From IMG/VR virus record IMGVR_UViG_2740892209_000012: 12,824 nucleotides of DNA. The stretch is one strand, 5' to 3'. Below the pieces are notes generated by a model, which was not told the DNA's origin, searched no databases, and was given only the letters and a program-made list of their open reading frames with translations. This stretch comes from a virus (Duplodnaviria > Heunggongvirae > Uroviricota > Caudoviricetes). This document shows, one piece after another, positions 228 to 10,500 of the stretch. Made by a program: the position numbers and the translations under genes. Positions within the stretch are counted from its first letter, which is position 1. Each line of letters starts with the position of its first letter.

Positions 228-1478
228 GTGATGACCGGAATCAAAATTATGCGCAGAGCACTTAACAAACTGAGTGATACACAGCTAAGGAAAATCAACG
301 GCACACCCGCCCAAAAAACAGCCTTTCTTAATGACGGTGGAAACCTGAGCGTCAGGCATTCAACCAGCGGCCTTTTAACCTGGTATTTCACCTACAGGGC
401 CGGAACGGGAAGGGGAGCACGACCGGAACGGATTAAGCTGGGAAATTATCCTGATCTGAGTCTGAAAGCTGCCAGGGAAAAAGCGGCACAGTGTCGCGCT
501 TGGCTTGCTGAGGGGAAAAATCCACGTCATGAGATGAATTACACCGTACAGAAAGCGTTAAAGCCCGTAACGGTTGGCGATGCGCTTACCTACTGGCTTG
601 AGTCTTACGTAAAGGAAAACCGCGTGGATTATGCCGCCCTGAAAAAGCGCCTTAATAATCACGTAATACAGCACATTGGTGCTATGCCGCTGGATAAATG
701 CGAGCTACGGCACTGGCTGGCCTGTTTTGACCAGGTGGCAAAGCGAACGCCTGTTACTGCCGGATTCTTGCTACAGACGTGCAAACAGGCGCTTAAGTTC
801 TGCCGGAGGCGGCGCTATGCAATCAGCAACGTTCTTGATGATATGAGTGTGGCGGACGTTGGGAAAAAACCGGATATAAGCGAGCGTGTCTTAAGCACCA
901 AAGAACTTGGCGAATTATTGCAGGCACTGGACAAAAAAATATTTTCCCCTTACTACGTCGCACTAATCCGCCTCCTGATTGTTTTCGGATGCCGGACGGT
1001 AGAACTGAGGTTATCGGAGATCAGCGAGTGGGATTTTACCGAAATGCTCTGGACCGTGCCGAAAGAACACAGCAAAACGAAGGTGGCAATATTCCGGCCC
1101 ATACCGGAAGCAATACTGCCGTTCGTCACGCAGCTGGTGGAGCAGAACAGGCACACGGGCTTATTGCTGGGGGAAGTGAAACAGGAAACAAGCGTGTCGC
1201 AGTACGGCAGATTAGCGCACAGGAGGCTAAAACACCCTCACTGGTCACTGCATGACATCCGGCGCACCTTTACAACGATGCTGAACGATTTAGGCGTGGA
1301 TCCTCACGTCGTGGAGCAGCTTACAGGTCATCAGATGCCAGGGATGCAACGAGTCTATAACCATTCCCGTTATCTGGATGCGAAACGTGACGCGCTGGAT
1401 ATGTGGACGGAGCGGTTAGGGATACTGGCGGGAACACATGAAAACGTAACCACATTGCCAATAGCCAGAGAAATATAA
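228..1478 (+). CDS. int: Tyrosine recombinase / integrase, P4-family type
   Basis: 416-codon ORF. N-terminal arm-binding-like pattern (LNDGGNLSVR, WYFTYR, IKLGNYPDLSL..AR) and C-terminal catalytic signature (LHDIRRTF, GH......Y) typical of P4-like integrases. Begins right after the attL core. Start uncertain: GTG 228, ATG 231 or ATG 249. Confidence 0.9.
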   Translation: MMTGIKIMRRALNKLSDTQLRKINGTPAQKTAFLNDGGNLSVRHSTSGLLTWYFTYRAGTGRGARPERIKLGNYPDLSLKAAREKAAQCRAWLAEGKNPRHEMNYTVQKALKPVTVGDALTYWLESYVKENRVDYAALKKRLNNHVIQHIGAMPLDKCELRHWLACFDQVAKRTPVTAGFLLQTCKQALKFCRRRRYAISNVLDDMSVADVGKKPDISERVLSTKELGELLQALDKKIFSPYYVALIRLLIVFGCRTVELRLSEISEWDFTEMLWTVPKEHSKTKVAIFRPIPEAILPFVTQLVEQNRHTGLLLGEVKQETSVSQYGRLAHRRLKHPHWSLHDIRRTFTTMLNDLGVDPHVVEQLTGHQMPGMQRVYNHSRYLDAKRDALDMWTERLGILAGTHENVTTLPIAREI

Positions 1479-1843: not shown

Positions 1844-2032
1844 GTGTTAAGCACAGATCGCTTTATACGTGAAAAAGAATGTCAGCAACTTACAGGCCTG
1901 AGCCGCTCATGTCGGTACCGCCTGGAAAAAGCCGGACAATTCCCATCACGGCGTAAGCTGGGCGGTCGTTCCGTTGGCTGGTCTTTATCCGAAGTTTTGG
2001 CATGGAAGGACAGCTGCGAGGCAGTTCACTAA
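1844..2032 (+). CDS. alpA: AlpA/Vis-family HTH regulator (excision and transcription activator type)
   Basis: 62-aa ORF with GTG start preceded by AAGGGGGA Shine-Dalgarno; FIREKECQQLTGLSRSCRYRLEKAGQFPSRRKLGGRSVGWSLSEVLAW matches the AlpA-type small HTH pattern; position immediately downstream of int as in Gram-negative PICIs. Confidence 0.8.
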   Translation: MLSTDRFIREKECQQLTGLSRSCRYRLEKAGQFPSRRKLGGRSVGWSLSEVLAWKDSCEAVH

Positions 2033-2084: not shown

Positions 2085-3371
2085 ATGAATACTGGATATT
2101 CTCCCGAACAAGGGCGGGGCTTCGTTCGTCCTGAAAAACAGAATCTGCAAAATTTTGCCGAAATTATTCCGGTTATTTCCGGCCTTACTGGCGGGAGTGA
2201 AACCAATATTGTTAACGCCAGAGCGTTGCAGATGTTTGATGATAAAAAGGGAGTAAATTTAACTTACACCCCTGACGGCAATCAGAATATGAGCATTATC
2301 TCTGAGTCAGGTTTCTACAAACTAATAAAAACAAAAAGCGCCCCGTTGCCGGAGCGCCTTTGTGAACAATTAACCTACTGCGCAAAAAATGAATCTGAGC
2401 AGTGGGATTATATCAACCATGTGGAGAAGCGCCACAATTGCCGAATAACGGGCAAAACAAAGGCCACCCGCTACAGTGGCCCCTCGACACAAGCTACACG
2501 TTATCCCCAACGCATGAGCATTGCCAACAATGCCACATTTGCGGCTGGTGGGCAATGCAATCAGTCTGGTTCAGTTCGTTGCCATACCTGCAATGAGCGC
2601 TTTTCCCTGTACTCTTTAAGGAATTGCTCAAGGGCAAAAGCACATGGCGCGAATCTTTCTGATTCATGCTCTATCTTTCTGCGCCGTCTTTTCCGTGCCG
2701 GTGATAATGTTTTGGTCAATTCTTTATCGGTCATTGTGTTGTCCTGCATAGCAATGCGCCGTAGTTACTCACACCACGGCGCTGGTGATGGTTACTCCTG
2801 CTCTTTGGCCTTGCGGCGCTGGCGGCGTTTGATTTCGCCGCGCATGGCTGCGTTTATAAACTGTCCCGTGCTTTCGCCTTCTTCTTTCACGTTCTCCATG
2901 CCTTCAATAATTTCATGGGCAATACGTGCAGTTACAGATTGTGATTTTGCATTCTTTGGACCCGTTGCCATGTTTAACCCCTCATGTTTTTGGTGTAAGA
3001 CAATATACACGAAAAAAAAATATTTTGAAGGGTTGGCGTGTAAGACACCATTGTTTTACATTGTGTCTTACACCTTATTGATGAAAGGCACAGAAACGAC
3101 GAAACCCCGCACTGTAGGAGCAGTAACGGGGCTTCTAACCACCAACGATAGCAACAGTATCGAGGTAGCTATGAGAAATCATACCACACACCCGAAAGGG
3201 CGGGACTCGCACAACCTGAATAAATACATCTGGCGTTTTATCGCCCTGAGCACGGCACAACCGCGCGTGATTACCATTGAGGCCACCAGCGAACAGGAAG
3301 CACGCCAGCAATCTCCGGCTGGCTGCGTGATGGTATTTGCTGCCCGTATTCGTCAGGGGGTAGGCTTATGA
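2085..3371 (+). CDS. Questionable 428-codon open frame; probably not one gene. Only the N-terminal ~85 codons look protein-like (BRO-N/antirepressor-like ISESGFYKLI motif)
   Basis: No stop for 1287 nt, but the central part is Cys/Ser/Arg/Leu-rich junk-like translation, runs antisense to a well-supported small minus-strand gene (2792-2971), and reads through an AT-rich operator/promoter region (2993-3080). The 3' end coincides with the Icd-like ORF starting at 3171. Confidence 0.2.
   Translation: MNTGYSPEQGRGFVRPEKQNLQNFAEIIPVISGLTGGSETNIVNARALQMFDDKKGVNLTYTPDGNQNMSIISESGFYKLIKTKSAPLPERLCEQLTYCAKNESEQWDYINHVEKRHNCRITGKTKATRYSGPSTQATRYPQRMSIANNATFAAGGQCNQSGSVRCHTCNERFSLYSLRNCSRAKAHGANLSDSCSIFLRRLFRAGDNVLVNSLSVIVLSCIAMRRSYSHHGAGDGYSCSLALRRWRRLISPRMAAFINCPVLSPSSFTFSMPSIISWAIRAVTDCDFAFFGPVAMFNPSCFWCKTIYTKKKYFEGLACKTPLFYIVSYTLLMKGTETTKPRTVGAVTGLLTTNDSNSIEVAMRNHTTHPKGRDSHNLNKYIWRFIALSTAQPRVITIEATSEQEARQQSPAGCVMVFAARIRQGVGL
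2324..2357 (-). terminator. Candidate intrinsic terminator for leftward transcription
   Basis: Stem GCGCCCCG (2338-2345) / CGGAGCGC (2350-2357), loop TTGC; on the minus strand it is followed by TTTTTGTTTTTATT (complement of 2324-2337). Confidence 0.35.
2792..2971 (-). CDS. Small basic hypothetical protein (59 aa), candidate autoregulated regulator
   Basis: Minus-strand ATG at 2971 preceded by GAGGGG Shine-Dalgarno (6-nt spacing); protein-like K/E-rich composition (MATGPKNAKSQSVTARIAHEIIEG...KRRQRRKAKEQE); promoter-like -35 TTCAAA / -10 TATATT upstream with a GTGTAAGACA operator-like repeat overlapping the -10/start region. Confidence 0.5.
   Translation of the reverse strand: MATGPKNAKSQSVTARIAHEIIEGMENVKEEGESTGQFINAAMRGEIKRRQRRKAKEQE
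2993..3073. promoter_or_regulatory. Divergent promoter/operator region with three GTGTAAGACA half-sites
   Basis: GTGTAAGACA at 2993-3002; perfect 11-bp inverted repeat GTGTAAGACAC (3038-3048) / GTGTCTTACAC (3063-3073) with a 14-bp spacer; lies between the minus-strand small gene and the plus-strand Icd-like ORF; -35-like TTTACA at 3055-3060 on the plus strand. Confidence 0.55.
3171..3371 (+). CDS. Icd-like small protein (host cell division inhibitor-like family seen in P1/P4-type immunity regions)
   Basis: ATG 3171 preceded by GAGG (5-nt spacing); 66 aa; the YIWRFIALSTAQPRVITIEATSEQEARQQSPAGCVMVFAARIR pattern resembles recalled Icd-like proteins; stop overlaps the next start (ATGA at 3368-3371). 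Confidence 0.45.
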   Translation: MRNHTTHPKGRDSHNLNKYIWRFIALSTAQPRVITIEATSEQEARQQSPAGCVMVFAARIRQGVGL

Positions 3372-4043: not shown

Positions 4044-4343
4044 ATGAAACTTAAATATTCTGGCTTAACTGCCAGTGGCAAAACTCGCACTAAATTCATG
4101 CGCGGTGATATTTACCGCGACCAGTACGGCGGCACGGTAATGATTAAGGGCGTGGAGGAACGGCGCGTAACCTACCGTCGTGAAGGCTACGAATATGATT
4201 GCGTGATGCCTGTTTATCAGTTCGATCGTGATTTTTCTCTGGTGCAGGCCGTACCGCGTAACGTGCCCACCAGCAGGGAGAAAGCACGCGCCAATATTCA
4301 GGAAATAAAAAAGATGCTTAACGTATTCAGGGGTAAGAAATGA
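4044..4343 (+). CDS. Hypothetical basic protein (99 aa), translationally coupled to the primase gene
   Basis: ATG 4044 with GGAGA Shine-Dalgarno; stop TGA 4341-4343 overlaps the primase ATG 4340 (ATGA). Confidence 0.65.
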   Translation: MKLKYSGLTASGKTRTKFMRGDIYRDQYGGTVMIKGVEERRVTYRREGYEYDCVMPVYQFDRDFSLVQAVPRNVPTSREKARANIQEIKKMLNVFRGKK

Positions 4344-6088
4344 AACTGGCACCGAACGTAAAAAAACAACCACGCGGAATAAAACACAAAGACACAGAGG
4401 TAATTATTTTCGCGGGTAGTGATGCGTGGTCACATGCAAAACAGTGGCAGGAGCAGGACGGCCCCGCATCCGGCGATAATGTGCCGCCTGTGTGGCTTGG
4501 GCCAAATCAGCTTGCCGAACTTGATGCGCTGAAAATTGTTCCGGATGGGAAAAAGCGCGTAAGGCTGTACCAGGCCGGAGAACTGGATTTGGTGGAGACC
4601 AAAAAGATTGGTCAGAAGCTGGCGGCGGCAGATATTCAGGACGCAAATTTTTACCCCGAAGGAATGCACGTCCAGAAGTGTGAAAACTGGCGGCGCTATC
4701 TGAATGCTGAGCGTGAAAATATTGCCGCAGGGCTTACCATGCCGGAGCAGAAAAATACGCAACTGGCACAAATGGCAGACAGTGAGCGCGCGCAGCTGCT
4801 TGCCGAGCGCTTTGATGGCGTTTGTGTGCATCCTGAAAGTGAAATCGTTCACGTATGGCGCGGCGGGGTATGGTGTCCGGTCAGCACAATGGAGCTGAGC
4901 CGCGAAATGGTGGCGATCTATTCAGAGCACAGGGCCACTTTCAGCAAGCGCGTAATCAATAACGCCGTGGAAGCGTTAAAAGTTATTGCCGAACCAATGG
5001 GCGAGCCGTCCGGCTATTTGCTGCCGTTCGCCAATGGTGCGCTTGACCTGAAAACGGGGGAATTTTCCCCGCACACGCCGGAGAACTGGATCACCACGCA
5101 CAACGGCATTGAGTACACGCCACCAGCACCAGGGGAGAACATCCGCGATAACGCGCCAAACTTTCATAAATGGCTTAAGCACGCAGCCGGAAAAGACCCG
5201 CGCAAGATGATGCGTATATGTGCCGCGCTGTACATGATTATGGCGAACCGGTACGACTGGCAGATGTTTATTGAGGCCACCGGAGACGGCGGGAGCGGTA
5301 AAAGTACATTCACACACATAGCCAGCCTTCTGGCAGGGAAACAGAACACGGTAAGCGCTGAAATGACATCGCTTGATGATGCTGGTGGACGTGCGCAGGT
5401 TGTCGGGAGTCGTCTTATCGTCCTGGCTGACCAGCCGAAATATACAGGCGAAGGAACGGGCATCAAGAAAATCACGGGCGGTGACCCCGTGGAAATTAAC
5501 CCGAAATACGAAAAGCGTTTCACGGCTGTAATCAGGGCGGTGGTGCTGGCGACCAACAATAACCCGATGATATTCACCGAACGGGCCGGAGGTGTGGCAC
5601 GTCGTCGCGTGATTTTCCGTTTCGACAATATCGTCAGTGAGGCCGAAAAAGACAGGGAGCTACCGGAAAAGATCGCGGCTGAAATCCCTGTCATTATCCG
5701 CCGATTGCTGGCGAACTTTACCGACCCTGAGAAGGCACGGGCTTTACTACTGGAACAGCGTGACGGTGATGAAGCACTGGCAATAAAGCAACAGACGGAT
5801 CCGGTTATTGAGTTTTGCCAGTTCCTGAATTTTCTGGAGGAAGCGCGCGGCCTGATGATGGGGGGCGGTGGCGATTCAGTGAAGTACACGACCAGGAACA
5901 GCCTTTACCGCGTCTATCTGGCGTTTATGGCATACGCAGGCAGGAGCAAACCGCTAAACGTAAATGACTTTGGAAAGGCTATGAAGCCTGCCGCAAAAGT
6001 TTACGGACATGAATATATTACGCGGAAAGTTAAGGGGGTAACGCAGACTAACGCAATAACAACAGACGAGTGCGACGCGTTTTTATAA
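4340..6088 (+). CDS. Primase/replication initiator with D5_N-like and SF3-helicase P-loop domains (P4 alpha C-terminal type; PICI pri-rep-like)
   Basis: 582-aa ORF; FANGALDLKTGEF motif (D5_N-like), Walker A GDGGSGKST, Walker B-like RLIVLADQ; immediately followed by an iteron array. Confidence 0.9.
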   Translation: MKLAPNVKKQPRGIKHKDTEVIIFAGSDAWSHAKQWQEQDGPASGDNVPPVWLGPNQLAELDALKIVPDGKKRVRLYQAGELDLVETKKIGQKLAAADIQDANFYPEGMHVQKCENWRRYLNAERENIAAGLTMPEQKNTQLAQMADSERAQLLAERFDGVCVHPESEIVHVWRGGVWCPVSTMELSREMVAIYSEHRATFSKRVINNAVEALKVIAEPMGEPSGYLLPFANGALDLKTGEFSPHTPENWITTHNGIEYTPPAPGENIRDNAPNFHKWLKHAAGKDPRKMMRICAALYMIMANRYDWQMFIEATGDGGSGKSTFTHIASLLAGKQNTVSAEMTSLDDAGGRAQVVGSRLIVLADQPKYTGEGTGIKKITGGDPVEINPKYEKRFTAVIRAVVLATNNNPMIFTERAGGVARRRVIFRFDNIVSEAEKDRELPEKIAAEIPVIIRRLLANFTDPEKARALLLEQRDGDEALAIKQQTDPVIEFCQFLNFLEEARGLMMGGGGDSVKYTTRNSLYRVYLAFMAYAGRSKPLNVNDFGKAMKPAAKVYGHEYITRKVKGVTQTNAITTDECDAFL

Positions 6089-6650: not shown

Positions 6651-7073
6651 ATGACAGCACAGATAGCAGCTTACGGGCGGCTGGTGGACGACCCGCAGGT
6701 AAAACAGACCAGCAAGGGCACACCGATGACGCTGGCGCGTATGGCGGTCCCCCTTCCGTGCAGCCAGGCAGATGACGGAACGGCGACGATGTGGTTATCC
6801 GTCCTGGCATTTGGCAGACAGGCCGAAGCACTGGAAAGGCACCGCAAGGGTGAACTCCTGAGCGTGGCGGGTAACATGCAGATCAGCCAGTCGACTGGGC
6901 AGAACGGAGAAACGCGGCAGGGCTGGCAGGTTATCGCAGACAGTGTAATCAGTGCGCGAACGGCGCGACTGGGCGGCAAAAAAGGTCAACAGGGCCAGGC
7001 TACTGACGCGCTGAACAGGGCAAAACAACAGGCGGGGAATGATGATCCGTACGGGGATAACATACCGTTTTAA
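6651..7073 (+). CDS. Single-stranded DNA-binding protein-like (short SSB with acidic C-terminal tail)
   Basis: 140 aa; OB-fold-like N-terminus (GRLVDDPQVKQTSKG...) and C-terminal DDPYGDNIPF resembling the SSB acidic tail ending in IPF; followed by a strong terminator. Confidence 0.75.
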   Translation: MTAQIAAYGRLVDDPQVKQTSKGTPMTLARMAVPLPCSQADDGTATMWLSVLAFGRQAEALERHRKGELLSVAGNMQISQSTGQNGETRQGWQVIADSVISARTARLGGKKGQQGQATDALNRAKQQAGNDDPYGDNIPF

Positions 7074-7080
7074 GCGACGA

Positions 7081-7102
7081 GAGACAGAAGCCGGAGCAAT
7101 CC
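7081..7102 (+). terminator. Rho-independent terminator after ssb
   Basis: GCCGGA-GCAA-TCCGGC hairpin followed by TTTTTT. Confidence 0.7.
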
Positions 7103-7160
7103 GGCTTTTTTACGGGTCCTCCTGGCGGGGTGGGCCTGAACACGGGGCGGGAAGCGCGGA
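7103..7160 (+). other. Degenerate cos-like sequence (pseudo-cosQ/cosN), paralogous to the 9530-9606 region
   Basis: ACGGGTCCTCCTGG followed by GGGCGGGAAGCG (8 of 12 matches to cosN) and CGG-AAAAAAGCG; the preceding hairpin is near-identical to the one at 9530-9545. Confidence 0.35.
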
Positions 7161-7286
7161 AAAAAGCGCATTTTTGTGATTTTATCGTCATCATCATCAT
7201 GAGCGTAATTTATTGTTTTTAATTGTTTTGATGCAAAAAAGATGATGGTTGTGGTTAATTTTCGTTCGACATCTTTGCAGGCAGAT

Positions 7287-7327
7287 AAAAAAGCCCGATA
7301 AGGTCAGAGGTGGCTTATCGGGCTTTT
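7287..7327. terminator. Bidirectional-looking stem-loop (10-bp stem) flanked by A-run and T-run
   Basis: GCCCGATAAG (7293-7302) / CTTATCGGGC (7314-7323), with AAAAAA upstream and TTTT downstream. Confidence 0.45.
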
Positions 7328-7422
7328 GCATATGAGGCTTTTTGGTGCACTGACACACATGAGCGGGATCATCATTTCATAATTTGCAACACAACTCAAT
7401 ATCATTGCACAAAACGCAATCC

Positions 7423-7453
7423 TGATTATAATCAGAGCTGGATGAACATCCAG
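7423..7453. promoter_or_regulatory. Two adjacent palindromes upstream of the capsid operon (candidate operator/activator sites)
   Basis: Perfect palindrome TGATTATAATCA (7423-7434) and CTGGATG-AA-CATCCAG (7438-7453), about 35 bp upstream of the ATG at 7489. Confidence 0.35.
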
Positions 7454-7488
7454 TTATGATTTTTTAAGTCGAAGAGGAATTTCTTACT

Positions 7489-7695
7489 ATGGCTGAAGAG
7501 AAAAAAGGCGGTGTTTCGGTGTACATAAGCCCCGAAATCGTGGAGGTGCTCAAGCAGCGCCACAAAAAAAACTATGAGGCTGGCGTGGCGGCTGGACTGG
7601 ATCCGCTGATGACGCCGGAGCCGTCGATAGGTTCACTTGTACGCTCTTATTTACTTGCGGCGCTTGGGATGCATAAAAATTATGGGGGTGAATAA
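7489..7695 (+). CDS. Small hypothetical protein (68 aa), possibly ribbon-helix-helix-like, first gene of the capsid operon
   Basis: ATG 7489 with AGAGGA upstream; GVSVYISPEIVEVLKQ resembles an RHH beta-strand/helix start; stop overlaps the MCP start (TAATG). Confidence 0.55.
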   Translation: MAEEKKGGVSVYISPEIVEVLKQRHKKNYEAGVAAGLDPLMTPEPSIGSLVRSYLLAALGMHKNYGGE

Positions 7696-8750
7696 TGGCA
7701 GGCAAAGCAACGGCACTTAACACTAACCAGCTTTTCATGTACCTGAATCGCGGGGATATTGCGGATTTTAAATTCAGCCCTCTGTTTACTACGCTGTTTT
7801 TCCCGAACGTGGCGACATTCAGCACGCAAAACATCATGCTGGATACCCTGGACATTGAAGAAGTCACCATGTCGGCGTTTTGTTCGCCTATGGTGGGTAG
7901 CCAGGTTCAGCGCGATAAAGGGTACGAAACCAGCACGATTAAACCTGGCTACATGAAGCCAAAGCACGAAATCGATCCAACGAAAACCATCATGCGCATG
8001 GCTGGAGAAGATCCGGCACAGCTTAACGACCCTACCTATCGCCGTATGCGCCTGATTACTGGCAATATGCGCCGCCAGATAAACGCCATAAAAGCGCGCG
8101 TGGAATGGCTGGCGGTAAATGCGGTAACGACCGGAAAAAACATCATTGAGGGCGAAGGCATAGAGCGCTATGAAATCGACTGGAAGATACCGGAAAAAAA
8201 CATCATAGAGCAGGCCGACGGGAAAAAATGGTCAGAGCAGGACAAAGAAACCCACGATCCAATCTATGATATCGAACTATACGCCGATCAGGCTGGTTGC
8301 CCCGCAAACGTCATGATTATGGGCGCTGAGGTATGGCGAACGTTACGCAGCTTTAAAAAATTCCGTGAGCTGTACGATCTTTCCCGTGGTTCAGAATCCG
8401 CCGCCGAACTGGCCTGTAAAAACCTGGGCGAAGTGGTGAGCTTTAAAGGCTATCTTGGTGATCTGGCCCTTATCGTCTATTCCGGCAAATACACTGACAG
8501 CGATGGTACCGAAAAATATTTCCTTGAGCCTGATTTGCTGGTCCTGGGCAACACCAACAATAAAGGGCTGGTGGCCTATGGTGCGATAATGGATCAGGAA
8601 GCGGTAAGAACGGGCGCAACACAAAACATGTTTTACCCGAAAAACTGGATTGAGGACGGCGATCCGGCGATTGAGTACGTGCAGACGCACAGCGCACCGC
8701 AGCCGGTTCCGGCAGATATTCGCAAATTTGTTACCGTCAAAATTGGTTAA
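7695..8750 (+). CDS. Major capsid protein, lambda gpE-like
   Basis: 351 aa; multiple blocks align with recalled lambda E (FKFSPLF..LFF, PGYMKPKHE, EDPAQLNDPTYRRMR, WSEQDK..HDP, RSFK, LVLGNT..GL..YG, YPKNW...GDPA, SAP). Confidence 0.9.
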   Translation: MAGKATALNTNQLFMYLNRGDIADFKFSPLFTTLFFPNVATFSTQNIMLDTLDIEEVTMSAFCSPMVGSQVQRDKGYETSTIKPGYMKPKHEIDPTKTIMRMAGEDPAQLNDPTYRRMRLITGNMRRQINAIKARVEWLAVNAVTTGKNIIEGEGIERYEIDWKIPEKNIIEQADGKKWSEQDKETHDPIYDIELYADQAGCPANVMIMGAEVWRTLRSFKKFRELYDLSRGSESAAELACKNLGEVVSFKGYLGDLALIVYSGKYTDSDGTEKYFLEPDLLVLGNTNNKGLVAYGAIMDQEAVRTGATQNMFYPKNWIEDGDPAIEYVQTHSAPQPVPADIRKFVTVKIG

Positions 8751-8761
8751 CGGGGGATTCT

Positions 8762-9097
8762 ATGGACACTCCATACATTGAGTTATTTGCAGGCAGTCAG
8801 CAGGTCGCCACGACGCTGGTACATTTTGCCGCTGATGCTGGCGTTATTCAGGAATTTACCCCGCTGATGCTGGCGGACAATGGCGAGTTTAAGCCGTGGG
8901 ATGGTAAGGAATCTGGCAAGGCTGTTTATCTGACCTCGTACCCTGTGGACACGTCAAAGCAGAAATCAGCACAGTGTTACAAGACGGGGATATTCAATAT
9001 TGCCGCCGTTAACTGGCCTGAGAGCGTCGACACCGATGCGAAAAAATGCGCCGCCTTTGCGGGTTCCGGCGTATCCGTTCAGCCGCTGGCCCGATAA
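8762..9097 (+). CDS. Head decoration protein, lambda gpD-like
   Basis: 111 aa; C-terminal YKTGIFNIAAVNWPESVDTDAKKCAAFAGSGVSVQ resembles lambda D ([34 protein letters not shown]); GGGGGA Shine-Dalgarno; lies downstream of the E-like gene (order reversed relative to lambda). Confidence 0.8.
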   Translation: MDTPYIELFAGSQQVATTLVHFAADAGVIQEFTPLMLADNGEFKPWDGKESGKAVYLTSYPVDTSKQKSAQCYKTGIFNIAAVNWPESVDTDAKKCAAFAGSGVSVQPLAR

Positions 9098-9109
9098 GCA
9101 GGGGGAACG

Positions 9110-9523
9110 ATGGCAACGAATGAAAGCATCATGACGCTACCGCTGGCGAGTAAATTTAAAGCCGAAGCGCGGGCAATGGCTGACAGAGGTTTATCAACCT
9201 ATGAGGCCGTATATCAACTAAACAAACTGGAAGAGCAGGACAAGCCGCGCGCTGATGCGATTATGGCGCTTCATGAGCATAAAGACTATCAGCCGCTGTT
9301 GCGTGCAATGGCAAACGTGCCTTGTATCGATGTTGGTACGGCTAAAAGCATCCTTAGCATGACCATAGAGCAGGAGCGCCCAAAGGTTGCACCAGAGCTT
9401 ACCGCAGCCTTTGAAAACTTTATGGACATGCACAGCCCGCAAGCCGTATCAGCTGGCATGGCATACGATGGCAGAAACCAGGGCGATGACGGCGACATCG
9501 ATCGCATACTGAAAACCATCTGA
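9110..9523 (+). CDS. Hypothetical protein (137 aa), last gene of the capsid operon
   Basis: ATG 9110 with AGGGGGAA Shine-Dalgarno; protein-like composition; followed by a strong terminator. No family recognised. Confidence 0.7.
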   Translation: MATNESIMTLPLASKFKAEARAMADRGLSTYEAVYQLNKLEEQDKPRADAIMALHEHKDYQPLLRAMANVPCIDVGTAKSILSMTIEQERPKVAPELTAAFENFMDMHSPQAVSAGMAYDGRNQGDDGDIDRILKTI

Positions 9524-9552: not shown

Positions 9553-9640
9553 ACGGGTCCTTTCCGGCATATGGACCCGTTACGGGGCGGCGACCTCGCG
9601 GTTTTTCGCTATTTATGAGCCTTTTCAGGGGGGTGGTGGT
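9553..9640 (+). other. Lambda-type cohesive end site (cosQ-cosN-proximal cosB), forward orientation
   Basis: ACGGGTCCTTTCCGG (cosQ-like, matches recalled lambda right end), GTTACG then GGGCGGCGACCT (9585-9596, identical to the lambda 12-nt cohesive end), then CGCGGTTTTTCGCTATTTATGA (near-identical to the lambda left end start); located about 135 bp upstream of the Nu1-like gene. Confidence 0.8.
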
Positions 9641-9729: not shown

Positions 9730-10272
9730 ATGAAATCGCACCTGATGAACAAAAAAAACATGGCGAAAAGCTGCCGTGTAAGTGCGACAGCGTTCGACAA
9801 GTGGGGAGTGACTCCCGTTGAACGTAAAGGCCGTGAGGCGTTTTACGATGTTGCCAGCGTGATAGACAATAGGGTTAACAATGCAATTAGCCAGCTTACA
9901 AACGACAAAGGCGATATTGATGATGATGAACTCTTACGAGTCAGGATCAGATTACTGACAGCACAGGCGGAGGCGCAGGAACTTAAAAACGAGCGCGATC
10001 GCGGTGACGTGATTGATACTGAGTTTTGCCTGTACGCGCTTTCAAAGCTGGCGAGTCAGATTTCATCAATCATGGACAGCCTCCCGCTTACTATGCAAAG
10101 GAGCTTCCCACAGATTACCCCCGCCATGCTGGATAGGCTTAAAAGGGAAGTGGTTAAAGCCTGTAATGCCAGTGCCAGAGTTGCCGACAACCTCCCACAG
10201 ATACTGGCTGATTACTTGAAAGAAACAACCGGAAACGTACCGGAAAAGTTGCTACAGAAGAAAGGCGAGTAA
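9730..10272 (+). CDS. Terminase small subunit, lambda Nu1-like
   Basis: 180 aa; LTAQAEAQELKNERDRGDVIDTEFCLYALSKLASQISSIMDSLPLTMQRSFPQ aligns with recalled lambda Nu1 (LTRAQADAQELKNARDSAEVVETAFCTFVLSRIAGEIASILDGLPLSVQRRFPE); the N-terminal NKK... region matches the Nu1 N-terminus; start may be ATG 9730 or ATG 9745. Confidence 0.85.
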   Translation: MKSHLMNKKNMAKSCRVSATAFDKWGVTPVERKGREAFYDVASVIDNRVNNAISQLTNDKGDIDDDELLRVRIRLLTAQAEAQELKNERDRGDVIDTEFCLYALSKLASQISSIMDSLPLTMQRSFPQITPAMLDRLKREVVKACNASARVADNLPQILADYLKETTGNVPEKLLQKKGE

Positions 10273-10274
10273 CA

Positions 10275-10500
10275 GACGCGCAATTATTGAACAAAACTGA
10301 GAAACGACATGAAAGCGTCATAAATCGCCATTTTAGATGATTACCGTGTCGTTTCTTTTTATTGTGTATCTATTTAAAAACAAATAGTTATGTTCGAGAA
10401 GTACCGACATGCTTTTTCCAGAAAAATTTTCATAAACAGATAAAAACCGCGAGGTCGCCGCCCCGTAACGGGCCATAATTCCAGGAAGGACCCGACGACA
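10275..10500 (-). other. Second lambda-type cos site in inverted orientation with extended lambda-like cosB
   Basis: The reverse complement reads cosQ-like CGGGTCCTTCCTGG, then GTTACG-GGGCGGCGACCT-CGCGGTTTTT (cosN on plus strand at 10452-10463), then TTTATGAAAATTTTT, CATAACTATTTGTTTTTAAATAGATA, AAAAAGAAACGACACGG and GTCGTTTCTCAGTTTTG, mirroring recalled lambda cosB blocks (R3/R2/R1 region). It shares a 36-bp inverted repeat with cos1 (9571-9606 vs 10442-10477, 1 mismatch). Confidence 0.7.

Follow-up and report, generated by a model that had tools for sequence, protein, structure and literature searches.

The 118 bp at positions 7371-7488 of the window, the whole 12,824-nt stretch of viral DNA analysed here, are read as a regulated promoter with its leader, driving the capsid operon of an EcCICFT073-type phage satellite and combining a LexA site, a nested hairpin and a second operator (probability roughly 0.6). 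Judged by the sequence, the likely switch is the host SOS response, as in SaPI operon I, with possible autoregulation in addition. The initial annotation had tentatively placed the control point for capsid and packaging genes at two palindromes just upstream of the first capsid-operon ORF and had proposed a helper signal or an island regulator as the switch. Both palindromes and the 68-aa ORF were found where it had put them, and the anatomy and conservation of promoter and leader support a control point at the head of the operon. The proposed switch was not borne out: because palindrome 2 matches a LexA box in both geometry and sequence and its variants drift toward the LexA consensus, host SOS is most likely the signal.

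The window represents a phage-inducible chromosomal island (PICI), a phage satellite, and adjoins phoQ. The genes int, alpA and a pri-type replication gene share one orientation and are followed by a lambda-type late module with cos sites; genes for an SSB and for E-like, D-like and Nu1-like proteins were also found in the window. The EcCICFT073 type is further defined by an Rpp/Nu1-like gene, a size of about 10-12 kb and a fixed chromosomal site. In the CFT073 island, gene order and the phoQ neighbour are identical to those of the window. The features are listed in Table 1. A cos site at the palindromes was rejected, as the exact cosN sequence occurs at two other places (Table 1). The 137-aa protein of the capsid operon matched positions 495-567 of 583 of phrog_53 (E 5e-9).

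Table 1. Features of the island and of the control region upstream of the capsid operon (window coordinates).
Feature	Position	Strand	Remarks
Integrase	228-1478		
AlpA	1844-2032		
D5_N primase	4340-6088		
Hairpin after ssb stop codon, AGCCGGAGCAATCCGGCT then T run	7089-7112	+	terminator-like; repeat families D6/D9 and I2
Predicted strong terminator T1, AAAAAAGCCCGATAAG ... CTTATCGGGCTTTT	7282-7334	+	inverted repeat I1, 21-nt arms, 86% complementary
Distal block with perfect TTGCAA (7384-7389)	7371-7403	+	21 bp upstream of proximal dyad
Dyad ATTGCAcaaaaCGCAAT (candidate operator)	7404-7420	.	consensus ATTGCA-N5-TGCAAT, right half TGCAAT; two TGCA-centred subsites 9 bp apart
Palindrome 1, TGATTATAATCA	7423-7434	+	contains perfect -10 hexamer TATAAT (7427-7432)
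Long hairpin T2 with U run	7430-7465	+	arms 7430-7443 and 7448-7461; inverted repeat I3
Candidate LexA box, AGCTGGATGAACATCCAGTT	7436-7455	.	core 7438-7453 is palindrome 2
Shine-Dalgarno AAGAGGAA	7472-7479	+	read from sequence; nearly invariant in alignments
68-aa ORF, c1498 homologue	7489-7695	+	first capsid-operon gene; begins MAEEKKGGVSVYISPEIVEVLKQ
Capsid operon genes after 68-aa ORF	7695-9523	+	
E-like major capsid gene	7695-8750	+	Pfam Phage_cap_E, E 6e-52
D-like decoration protein gene	8762-9097	+	Pfam HDPD, E 2.5e-17
137-aa protein gene	9110-9523	+	resembles C-terminal (Nu3-like scaffold) part of head maturation protease
cosN, exact GGGCGGCGACCT	9585-9596 and 10452-10463	+ and -	on both sides of Rpp-like gene

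To our knowledge, AlpA is the only switch described in Gram-negative PICIs; it is turned on by the helper phage and is reportedly unresponsive to SOS. Deletion of the capsid genes c1498-c1501 gave no phenotype. In CFT073, these genes behave as one expression unit and rise together on a temperature upshift, where neither a rise of the rest of the island nor DNA damage is reported (PMC12890032); the response to temperature counts against SOS control. A joint rise of c1498-c1501, reported without the rest of the island, fits a promoter of the operon's own.

Perfect inverted repeats are more frequent in the 415-bp intergenic region than expected by chance. Five with arms of at least 6 nt and spacers of 0-4 nt were found, compared with 0.55 in shuffles (P 0.003), and three had arms of at least 7 nt, compared with 0.14 (P 0.004). 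Across 92 aligned loci, which were picked via the protein and not via the DNA, column identity of promoter and leader was 0.90-0.94 and exceeded that of the coding sequence (0.86). The promoter region is near-identical in E. coli and Salmonella islands, though their proteins are just 54% identical. A phage origin of promoter or protein was rejected, with no blastn or tblastn match in 50,697 phage records. In species-representative genomes, the protein pattern gave no match and the DNA pattern only chance matches in unrelated phyla.

The core of the region resembles a sigma-70 promoter. The -35 element TTGCAC (7405-7410) matches the consensus at three of six positions and is separated by a 16-bp spacer from the perfect TATAAT, an arrangement that was not called by a consensus scan and that would start transcription near 7439. 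Palindrome 1, unique in the window even at two mismatches, appears from its sequence to be essentially this hexamer plus one arm of a longer hairpin. A change in its right arm from AATCA to AATTA is compensated in the distant TGATT (7457-7461) and not in its own left arm, and no covariation supporting palindrome 1 as a pairing unit of its own was seen among the aligned alleles. The divergent relative L096 carries TAAAAT at equal spacing from the dyad, without palindrome 1.

Several other candidates were rejected here. The upstream promoter called by the scan, TTCATA-18-TATCAT, has a -10 that is not conserved in Salmonella. A Fur box over the -10 matches at 12-14 of 19 positions, a level at which about 150 sites per Mb are expected. 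For a lambda CII site (TTGC-N6-TTGC), sigma-54, a MerR-type spacer dyad and CRP, the geometry was wrong when the sequence was read against their consensus sequences. Use of the same sites by AlpA or another island regulator was dismissed, as none of the three elements recurs near alpA. PerC was dismissed as the regulator because the island in the window has kept the promoter yet has neither perC nor its remnant. In many related islands, perC lies directly upstream.

Palindrome 2, CTGGATGAACATCCAG (CTGGATG-AA-CATCCAG), is unique in the window even at three mismatches and looks like the core of a good LexA/SOS box. The 20-bp palindromic site has the CTG-N10-CAG geometry, and both triplets are invariant in the 27 distinct alleles of the core group. 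It starts 4 nt past the TATAAT of a promoter with a weak -35 and covers the predicted start (about 7439-7440); Salmonella SOS boxes with LexA-dependent expression also overlap the transcription start (PMC8072944). With a matrix rebuilt from LexA boxes of which ruvAB alone was checked against a genome, the window allele had a heterology-type score of 5.9-7.4 and common alleles one of 4.2-5.6, compared with 1.1-9.3 for the 27 listed boxes (leave-one-out median 6.9). Whether or not ruvAB was part of the matrix, the window box scored level with the median known box. Random sequence yields a score of 7.5 or better about once per Mb, or roughly 0.013 times per window, and no second site of this quality occurs in those related loci of 12-50 kb in which a box is present. 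Frequent natural variants (CATACAG for CATCCAG and GGATA for GGATG) drift toward the LexA consensus TACTGTATATATATACAGTA (PMC8072944).

The ruvAB box of E. coli, CGCTGGATATCTATCCAGCA in the K-12 sequence preceding ruvA, has identical arms (CTGGAT-N4-ATCCAG), with the same unusual G for the consensus T at the fourth half-site position, and likewise lies in a promoter region. The two differ in the central four bases, GAAC here and ATCT in ruvAB, and in their flanks, and the candidate box is located in a mobile island. Because its centre, GATGAACATC, has a lower AT content than that of the consensus and CTGG replaces CTGT in both half-sites, the affinity for LexA may be modest. The box was not found in the divergent relatives L095 and L096, so SOS control would not be universal in the family. 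Palindrome 2 could also owe its conservation solely to its place at the hairpin top.

The TGCA-centred dyad is the strongest candidate for an operator bound by the 68-aa protein. It had not been listed in the initial annotation. Its left half doubles as the -35 element, its column identity across the 92 loci was 0.94, and it is the sole promoter element kept in L095 and L096, each of which carries two copies about 30-32 bp apart and lacks both palindromes. Elsewhere in the window, a single other match to TTGC-N7-GCAA occurs, which is the chance level. The distal block, with a column identity of 0.92 across the same loci and conserved between E. coli and Salmonella, may act as an UP element or add a third subsite to the operator. 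CopG of pMV158 and Arc of phage P22 are ribbon-helix-helix (RHH) autorepressors encoded by the first gene of their operon. The 68-aa protein resembles them as a small first-gene product with a candidate operator that overlaps the -35 and spacer. The element bound by CopG is 13 bp long and spans two TGCA motifs, with the same tetranucleotide and spacing as in the dyad consensus (PMC3413123).

The 68-aa ORF looks like a real gene. It is annotated by RefSeq, belongs to phrog_3255 (E 8.5e-46) and is conserved down to 43% identity in islands of E. coli, Shigella and Salmonella, with column identities of 0.88, 0.91 and 0.80 at codon positions 1, 2 and 3, so that third positions vary most. The initial annotation had likened its N-terminus to the start of an RHH protein; a strand-helix-helix pattern is present, with V9, V11 and I13 invariant or nearly so, but no RHH profile was significant. 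An AlphaFold model (pLDDT 75) showed an extended N-terminus and helices at 15-34 and 47-58, but Foldseek against PDB and BFVD returned nothing meaningful. No Pfam, NCBIfam or PDB-sequence match passed its threshold; the best hits, each in register and for one member, were RHH_1 (E 0.2; 12.1 bits, cut-off 20.5) and BrnA_antitoxin (E 0.017; 15.9 bits, cut-off 26.1). In hhalign comparisons with nine verified classical RHH proteins, P was 0.05 or worse and no better than in controls. The N-domains of TraM from F, R1 and pED208 (PDB 4qpo, 1dp3, 3omy, 3on0) gave the best profile match, in register and with P 0.005-0.007 among roughly 20 comparisons.

The motif Y-[IV]-S-x-[DE] is common to both families, with YVSDEIV in R1 TraM and YISPEIV in the 68-aa protein, and helix 1 is long in both. 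The best-conserved segments of the 68-aa protein are the putative ribbon V-S/T-V-Y-I-S-P and the helix 2 N-cap E-P-S-x-G. Tyr7 and Ser32, which contact DNA in pED208 TraM (PMC3159463), align with the invariant Y12 and S46, and P45-S46-x-G48, invariant and preceding helix 2, aligns with Ser32 and Ser34. Unlike TraM, the 68-aa protein lacks a C-terminal tetramerisation domain and is encoded in the capsid operon of a satellite instead of a conjugation locus; its target motif would not be GANTC, and the similarity is statistically weak. It departs from CopG and Arc in its longer helix 1, in an inter-helix loop of about 12 residues, unusually long for an RHH protein, and in scoring below the Pfam RHH thresholds. 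The ribbon reads Arg, Thr, Thr in CopG and Gly, Ser/Thr, Tyr here, without Arg, Lys, Asn or Gln at DNA-facing positions, and the overall charge is roughly neutral. The RHH signals are weak but convergent, none being significant alone, and a TraM-like RHH DNA-binding protein is plausible.

It was also considered whether the 68-aa protein is a translationally coupled capsid-assembly or capsid-associated factor and the dyad is bound by a host factor, for example a CytR-like one, a reading considered doubtful. The stop codon of the ORF overlaps the ATG of the E-like capsid gene, the protein is always found together with a capsid gene, which in L095 belongs to a different family, and the near-neutral charge and the lack of a significant DNA-binding domain fit as well. 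The dyad halves TTGCA and TGCAA, moreover, resemble the half-sites recognised by CytR. However, two other small genes lie between the 68-aa homologue and the capsid gene in L095, and no phage record searched encodes a relative, which would be unusual for a generic head-assembly factor. The best-conserved segments match the DNA-contacting parts of the RHH fold, the protein is inherited with the dyad across module boundaries, and the tandem CRP sites needed by CytR are not evident.

Hairpin T2 encloses palindrome 2 and has the -10 and the predicted start nested inside it. Its 14-bp stem is followed by UUUU, as expected of a terminator, and the scan also called it terminator-like; the stem is AU-rich, with five G-C pairs, and 4-5 U lie beyond it. 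For the window allele, the minimum free energy was -13.4 kcal/mol (z -3.7). Three pairs have changed on both sides, one from C-G to U-A at 7433/7458, while pair 7435/7456 alternates between U-A, G-C and C-G and pair 7436/7455 between A-U and G-C. In these closely related sequences, the covariation score and the percentage paired exceeded all 500 of 500 shuffles, and slid controls were far lower. An Rfam search gave only sub-threshold noise and no known RNA family.

Read-through RNA folds with a dG of -9.4 to -21.8 across alleles, with the outer stem formed in all but one, compared with only -0.7 to -5.1 for RNA started near 7439. T2 should thus halt read-through from upstream and spare transcripts begun at the embedded promoter. 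Two predicted terminators precede it. T1 looks bidirectional because it is flanked by an A run and a T run; its stem is invariant in the alignments, and it forms the left boundary of the late module, with similarity to other islands breaking at about window position 7287. The hairpin after ssb is also found 3' of perC or ssb in CFT073 and L009.

An action of the inverted repeat as RNA only, as a terminator or attenuator read through with a lambda Q-type helper antiterminator or by helper late transcription in embedded islands, with the likeness to a LexA box coincidental, is considered unlikely. The stem and U run, compensatory and G-U changes on the + strand, the terminator call by the scan and the three terminators in a row before the operon are all consistent with it, and some relatives (L096 to L098) sit inside helper late operons in the same orientation (also PMC10111431). 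However, upstream of 7430 no promoter is conserved: the TATCAT is not conserved in Salmonella, and a CATAAT has no -35. The invariant perfect TATAAT is placed so that a start inside the hairpin bypasses termination, and an uncompensated C-to-A change in the inner stem of 8 loci weakens the hairpin and improves the LexA match. L096 lacks a hairpin altogether, and the region resembles no phage late promoter region. Late control of the capsid operon of the lambda Q type is likewise unlikely. The arrangement resembles lambda PR'-tR' in having a terminator directly before late genes, and the helpers are lambdoid, but no conserved promoter precedes the terminator, phage late-region similarity is lacking, and the -10 lies inside the hairpin.

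It is quite unlikely that both palindromes are operators through which the 68-aa RHH protein or a helper-phage factor switches the operon on. In favour of this, the palindromes lie over the promoter and show high conservation in the E. coli/Salmonella group, the protein could plausibly have an RHH fold, the commonest allele has several copies of the hexamer AATCAT/ATGATT near the -10, and pED208 TraM-type RHH domains read short GANTC-like motifs (PMC3159463). Against it, the right arm of palindrome 1 co-varies with the distant 3' arm, LexA-box rules account for palindrome 2 in detail, including the direction of its natural variants, L095 and L096 keep the protein and the dyad without either palindrome, and no phage record contains the promoter or the protein.

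In the preferred reading, host LexA bound to the SOS box over the start site would hold the operon off. DNA damage would lead to self-cleavage of LexA and open the promoter in step with the lambdoid helper prophage, which is also induced by damage. T2 and the two upstream terminators would block transcription arriving from the replication module, and RNA begun inside T2, without the outer stem, would escape termination. The dyad, with its two TGCA subsites and the distal TTGCAA, would serve as a second operator, most likely bound by the first gene product, and a 68-aa TraM/CopG-like RHH dimer would then regulate the operon that encodes it.

SaPI operon I is LexA-regulated (Ubeda 2007, as cited in PMC6092414), and as far as that citation goes, the parallel would be a satellite operon for capsid morphogenesis and packaging that the host SOS repressor keeps shut until damage to DNA induces the helper prophage, and that is transcribed separately from the replication module, all as predicted here for the EcCICFT073-type island. 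Unlike SaPI operon I, the island has a Gram-negative host with CTG-N10-CAG and not the Gram-positive LexA motif, carries homologues of lambda-type E, D and Nu3, and has its promoter nested in a terminator hairpin with an extra dyad. In the searched literature on Gram-negative PICIs, LexA is mentioned only via citation of SaPI work. If the LexA box is genuine, these islands would read host DNA damage directly for their capsid module, via a self-contained and triple-insulated promoter, and would share a convergent logic with the staphylococcal SaPIs across very distant satellites. SOS induction is a condition under which a phenotype of c1498-c1501 might finally appear.

The small conserved first gene is an uncharacterised candidate regulator. 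A very unlikely extension is that the c1498-family protein is a LexA-silenced, TraM-like RHH regulator acting in trans, on TGCA-type sites or partner proteins in the island or helper; the LexA-controlled antirepressors of Gifsy prophages and Tum of coliphage 186 may be likened to it. DNA damage would then be sensed by the satellite itself, independently of the AlpA pathway induced by the helper, and the satellite might also be able to influence helper induction or packaging. Of 5,426 complete E. coli genomes, about 600 carry the region, and the exact 68-aa protein occurs on at least 1,000 contigs.

The window, 12.8 kb long, is an EcCICFT073-type phage-inducible chromosomal island (PICI). Its listed genes, from int to the 93-aa ORF, run in a single direction, and the chromosomal phoQ comes after them. 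Gene order and chromosomal site are the same in E. coli CFT073, and the 68-aa ORF at the head of the capsid operon is therefore the homologue of c1498. DNA similar to the window was found in about 600 of 5,426 complete E. coli genomes.

Features of the island and of the region upstream of its capsid operon
Feature	Coordinates	Remark
Integrase	228-1478	
AlpA	1844-2032	
DUF4222 protein		between AlpA and the D5_N primase
D5_N primase	4340-6088	
SSB	6651-7073	
Upstream terminators	7089-7112 and 7282-7334	just upstream of the promoter region
TGCA dyad (ATTGCAcaaaaCGCAAT)	7404-7420	
Palindrome 1 (TGATTATAATCA)	7423-7434	
Long inverted repeat	7430-7444 with 7447-7461	
Palindrome 2 (CTGGATGAACATCCAG)	7438-7453	
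68-aa ORF	7489-7695	
Lambda E-like major capsid protein	7695-8750	
D-like decoration protein	8762-9097	
137-aa protein	9110-9523	resembles the Nu3-like C-terminal part of head protease
Nu1-like Rpp-type protein	9730-10272	
93-aa ORF		last island gene, after the Nu1-like gene
cosN (GGGCGGCGACCT), lambda-type, exact	9585-9596 (+) and 10452-10463 (-)	opposite orientations, flanking the Nu1-like gene

Both palindromes and the 68-aa ORF were found exactly as listed in the initial annotation, and perfect inverted repeats occur in the intergenic region at about ten times the shuffled frequency. The ORF behaves like coding sequence, with a Shine-Dalgarno sequence, most variation at third codon positions, and homologues down to 43% identity. 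Among 92 loci, which were gathered through the 68-aa protein and are therefore unbiased by DNA motifs, conservation is higher in the 118 bp 5' of the ATG than within the gene. This DNA has hardly changed between E. coli and Salmonella islands whose proteins are just 54% identical. Judged by this conservation, the 118 bp are a functional regulatory region, and they very probably hold a regulated promoter; the initial annotation had placed the control point correctly. No Rfam family matched the region, and neither the promoter DNA nor the 68-aa protein was found in 50,697 phage records. A cos site is ruled out here, as the two exact copies of cosN lie on either side of the Rpp-like gene, the placement published for EcCICFT073 (PMC6092414, PMC6739421).

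The arrangement that best accounts for the region, with a probability of roughly 0.6, is a predicted LexA-controlled promoter nested in a terminator and combined with ribbon-helix-helix (RHH) autoregulation at the TGCA dyad. Binding of the small protein or of a helper factor, the role initially proposed for the palindromes, explains them less well than does a combination of -10 hexamer, LexA box and terminator stem.

Palindrome 1 includes TATAAT (7427-7432), 16 bp 3' of TTGCAC, and its right arm, AATCA, also starts the far longer inverted repeat. Most alleles carry this repeat as a perfect palindrome of 15+15 bp, AATCATAACTGGATG-AA-CATCCAGTTATGATT, with a T run behind it. Across 27 distinct alleles, two-sided changes were counted at three pairs of the long hairpin: 7433/7458 (C-G to U-A), 7435/7456 (U-A, G-C, C-G), and 7436/7455 (A-U, G-C), with several G-U intermediates on the + strand. 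The covariation score exceeded 500 of 500 shuffles, and slid controls scored far lower. In the same alleles palindrome 1 showed no covariation as a pairing unit of its own, and the change that matches a C-to-T substitution of its right arm is found in the distant arm and not within the palindrome's left arm. We read palindrome 1 as a predicted -10 hexamer plus a hairpin arm.

Folded read-through RNA forms a 14-bp stem with U's directly after it (dG -9.4 to -21.8 kcal/mol across alleles), the outer stem forming in all alleles except one. RNA begun at about 7439 is left with a stem of just 5 bp, separated from the U run by 7 nt (dG about -4 kcal/mol). This contrast suggests a promoter nested in a terminator, which would stop read-through from upstream and spare transcripts of its own promoter; the long hairpin probably acts in this way.

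Similarity to other island types breaks at the second upstream terminator, T1. Between it and the ssb terminator about 170 bp of non-coding DNA (7113-7281) are inserted; in CFT073 and one further locus (L009) the insert is missing and the two terminators abut. Similar DNA lies downstream of perC in PICIs without a capsid operon (L182), and the idea that the insert is a perC remnant was rejected. In many related islands, including EcCICFT073 (loci L004, L006-L011, L181), a PerC-family regulator is encoded immediately before the late promoter, upstream of T1, and one database protein (P0023) is a fusion of PerC and the 68-aa protein, apparently made by deletion.

Palindrome 2 has the CTG-N10-CAG geometry of the enterobacterial SOS box, whose consensus has been published as TACTGTATATATATACAGTA (PMC8072944). 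It shares its exact arms, CTGGAT and ATCCAG, with the ruvAB box, which reads CGCTGGATATCTATCCAGCA directly upstream of ruvA in K-12. On a heterology-index type score, approximate because ruvAB alone was verified among the 27 LexA boxes from which it was built, the window site scored 5.9-7.4 and commoner alleles 4.2-5.6, compared with 1.1-9.3 (leave-one-out median 6.9) for the 27 boxes. Leaving ruvAB out of the matrix did not affect the result. Random sequence of window composition gives about one site per Mb scoring 7.5 or better, and no other site as good occurred in the box-carrying related loci of 12-50 kb, including 50 kb of CFT073 with a lambdoid prophage. The CTG and CAG triplets are invariant across alleles. 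The two commonest variants, CATCCAG to CATACAG (8 loci) and GGATG to GGATA (about 20 loci), both shift towards the LexA consensus while the hairpin weakens or stays unchanged. The box begins 4 nt 3' of the perfect TATAAT, which places it over the predicted transcription start, where LexA typically represses. Palindrome 2 is, on these grounds, likely to be a functional LexA operator.

The TGCA dyad, an element absent from the initial annotation, overlies the -35 and spacer. It comprises two TGCA-centred subsites 9 bp apart, with a perfect TTGCAA 21 bp further upstream, and its geometry matches that of the CopG operator, in which two TGCA motifs are spanned by 13 bp (PMC3413123). The right half is TGCAAT in nearly all other loci and CGCAAT in the window, where 7415 is C as against T in nearly every one of the other 91 loci. 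The window's hairpin, too, has G-A and G-U positions in its outer stem; its candidate operator and terminator may accordingly both be weaker than those of common alleles.

The dyad is the sole promoter element retained in the most divergent relatives, L095 and L096, which carry two copies each, about 30-32 bp apart, and are without palindrome 1, hairpin or LexA box. The island L096 sits within a helper prophage and encodes a protein 51% identical to the 68-aa protein; L095 encodes one of 43% identity, with a capsid gene from another family and a tailspike gene coming next. Dyad and small gene therefore travel together. Module relatives in L096 (6001-12213) and L098 (6001-12204) lie within helper-prophage late operons, beside portal, protease, FI and tail genes, a setting resembling that of published helper-embedded PICIs (PMC10111431).

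The family of the 68-aa protein is tiny, with 25 matches in 5.8 billion clustered sequences and 16 in 1.84 billion cluster representatives. It is satellite-specific and invariably the first gene after the capsid-operon promoter. No match passed the threshold in Pfam, NCBIfam or PDB sequences, Foldseek against PDB and BFVD gave nothing useful, and in hhalign nine Pfam-verified RHH proteins aligned no better than controls. In the AlphaFold monomer (pLDDT 75) the N-terminus is extended and two helices span 15-34 and 47-58. Alignment by hhalign to TraM N-domains, with sequences confirmed against PDB, gave P 0.005-0.007 with strand and helix 1 in register, YISPEIV corresponding to YVSDEIV of R1 TraM. 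Sub-threshold Pfam matches to RHH_1 (E 0.2) and BrnA_antitoxin (E 0.017) cover the same segment, also in register. The best-conserved segments, the putative ribbon V-S/T-V-Y-I-S-P and the helix 2 start E-P-S-x-G, align with Tyr7 and with Ser32 and Ser34 of pED208 TraM, respectively, which contact bases and phosphates (PMC3159463). The RHH fold proposed from the N-terminus is reasonable given the weak TraM, RHH_1 and BrnA signals, but no profile or Foldseek match was significant; we consider the fold somewhat favoured and family membership putative. That the protein is an RHH autoregulator acting at the dyad is a tentative assignment, at slightly below even odds.

The predicted arrangement brings together elements of familiar kinds: a satellite packaging operon under SOS control as in Staphylococcus aureus pathogenicity islands (SaPIs), a candidate small RHH autoregulator as in CopG and Arc, and a promoter nested in a terminator. 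None of the three has previously been described in the EcCICFT073-type family in open-access text, and the finding is of moderate interest and directly testable. In that literature on Gram-negative PICIs, LexA is named solely when citing work on SaPI operon I, and no description of a LexA box was found. The island's known activator is AlpA, induced by helper phage, not SOS (PMC6092414). In CFT073 shifted to 37 C, c1498-c1501 rise together (PMC12890032), which supports a separate transcription unit and points to inputs besides DNA damage. No phenotype is known for c1499 and c1500, and c1498-c1501 can be replaced with transfer kept (PMC6092414, PMC10460865).

Further observations were made elsewhere in the island. 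Similarity of the 137-aa ORF, which follows the decoration gene, to head maturation proteases is confined to their C-terminal part (positions 495-567 of the 583 in phrog_53), the part corresponding to the lambda Nu3 scaffold; besides capsid and decoration proteins, the island may thus supply a scaffold of its own. The sole annotated minus-strand gene (2792-3010), within a disrupted Icd-like region, encodes a 72-aa YlcI/YnfO family protein without a Pfam match, whose strand-helix-turn-helix-like pattern (SVTARIAHEIIEGM...GESTGQFINAAMRGEI) is reminiscent of Arc/RHH proteins. A second LexA-box-like inverted repeat, TACTGTTTTTTTATACACTG (1607-1626, score 7.4-8.7), with one half-site CAC and not CAG, lies between int and alpA, and a similar site, TACTGGTTTTTTGTACACTA, occurs at the equivalent place (L001 coordinate 2090) in the related island L001, whose left part differs; alpA is reported not to be SOS-induced (PMC6092414). 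In the same intergenic region a (G/A)AACAAC-type unit is directly repeated five or six times with a period of about 10 bp (gaaacaacgagacacaacgacgaacaacaaggaacaaaatggaacaacggg, 1507-1565); the repeats are possible arm-type Int or AlpA binding sites.
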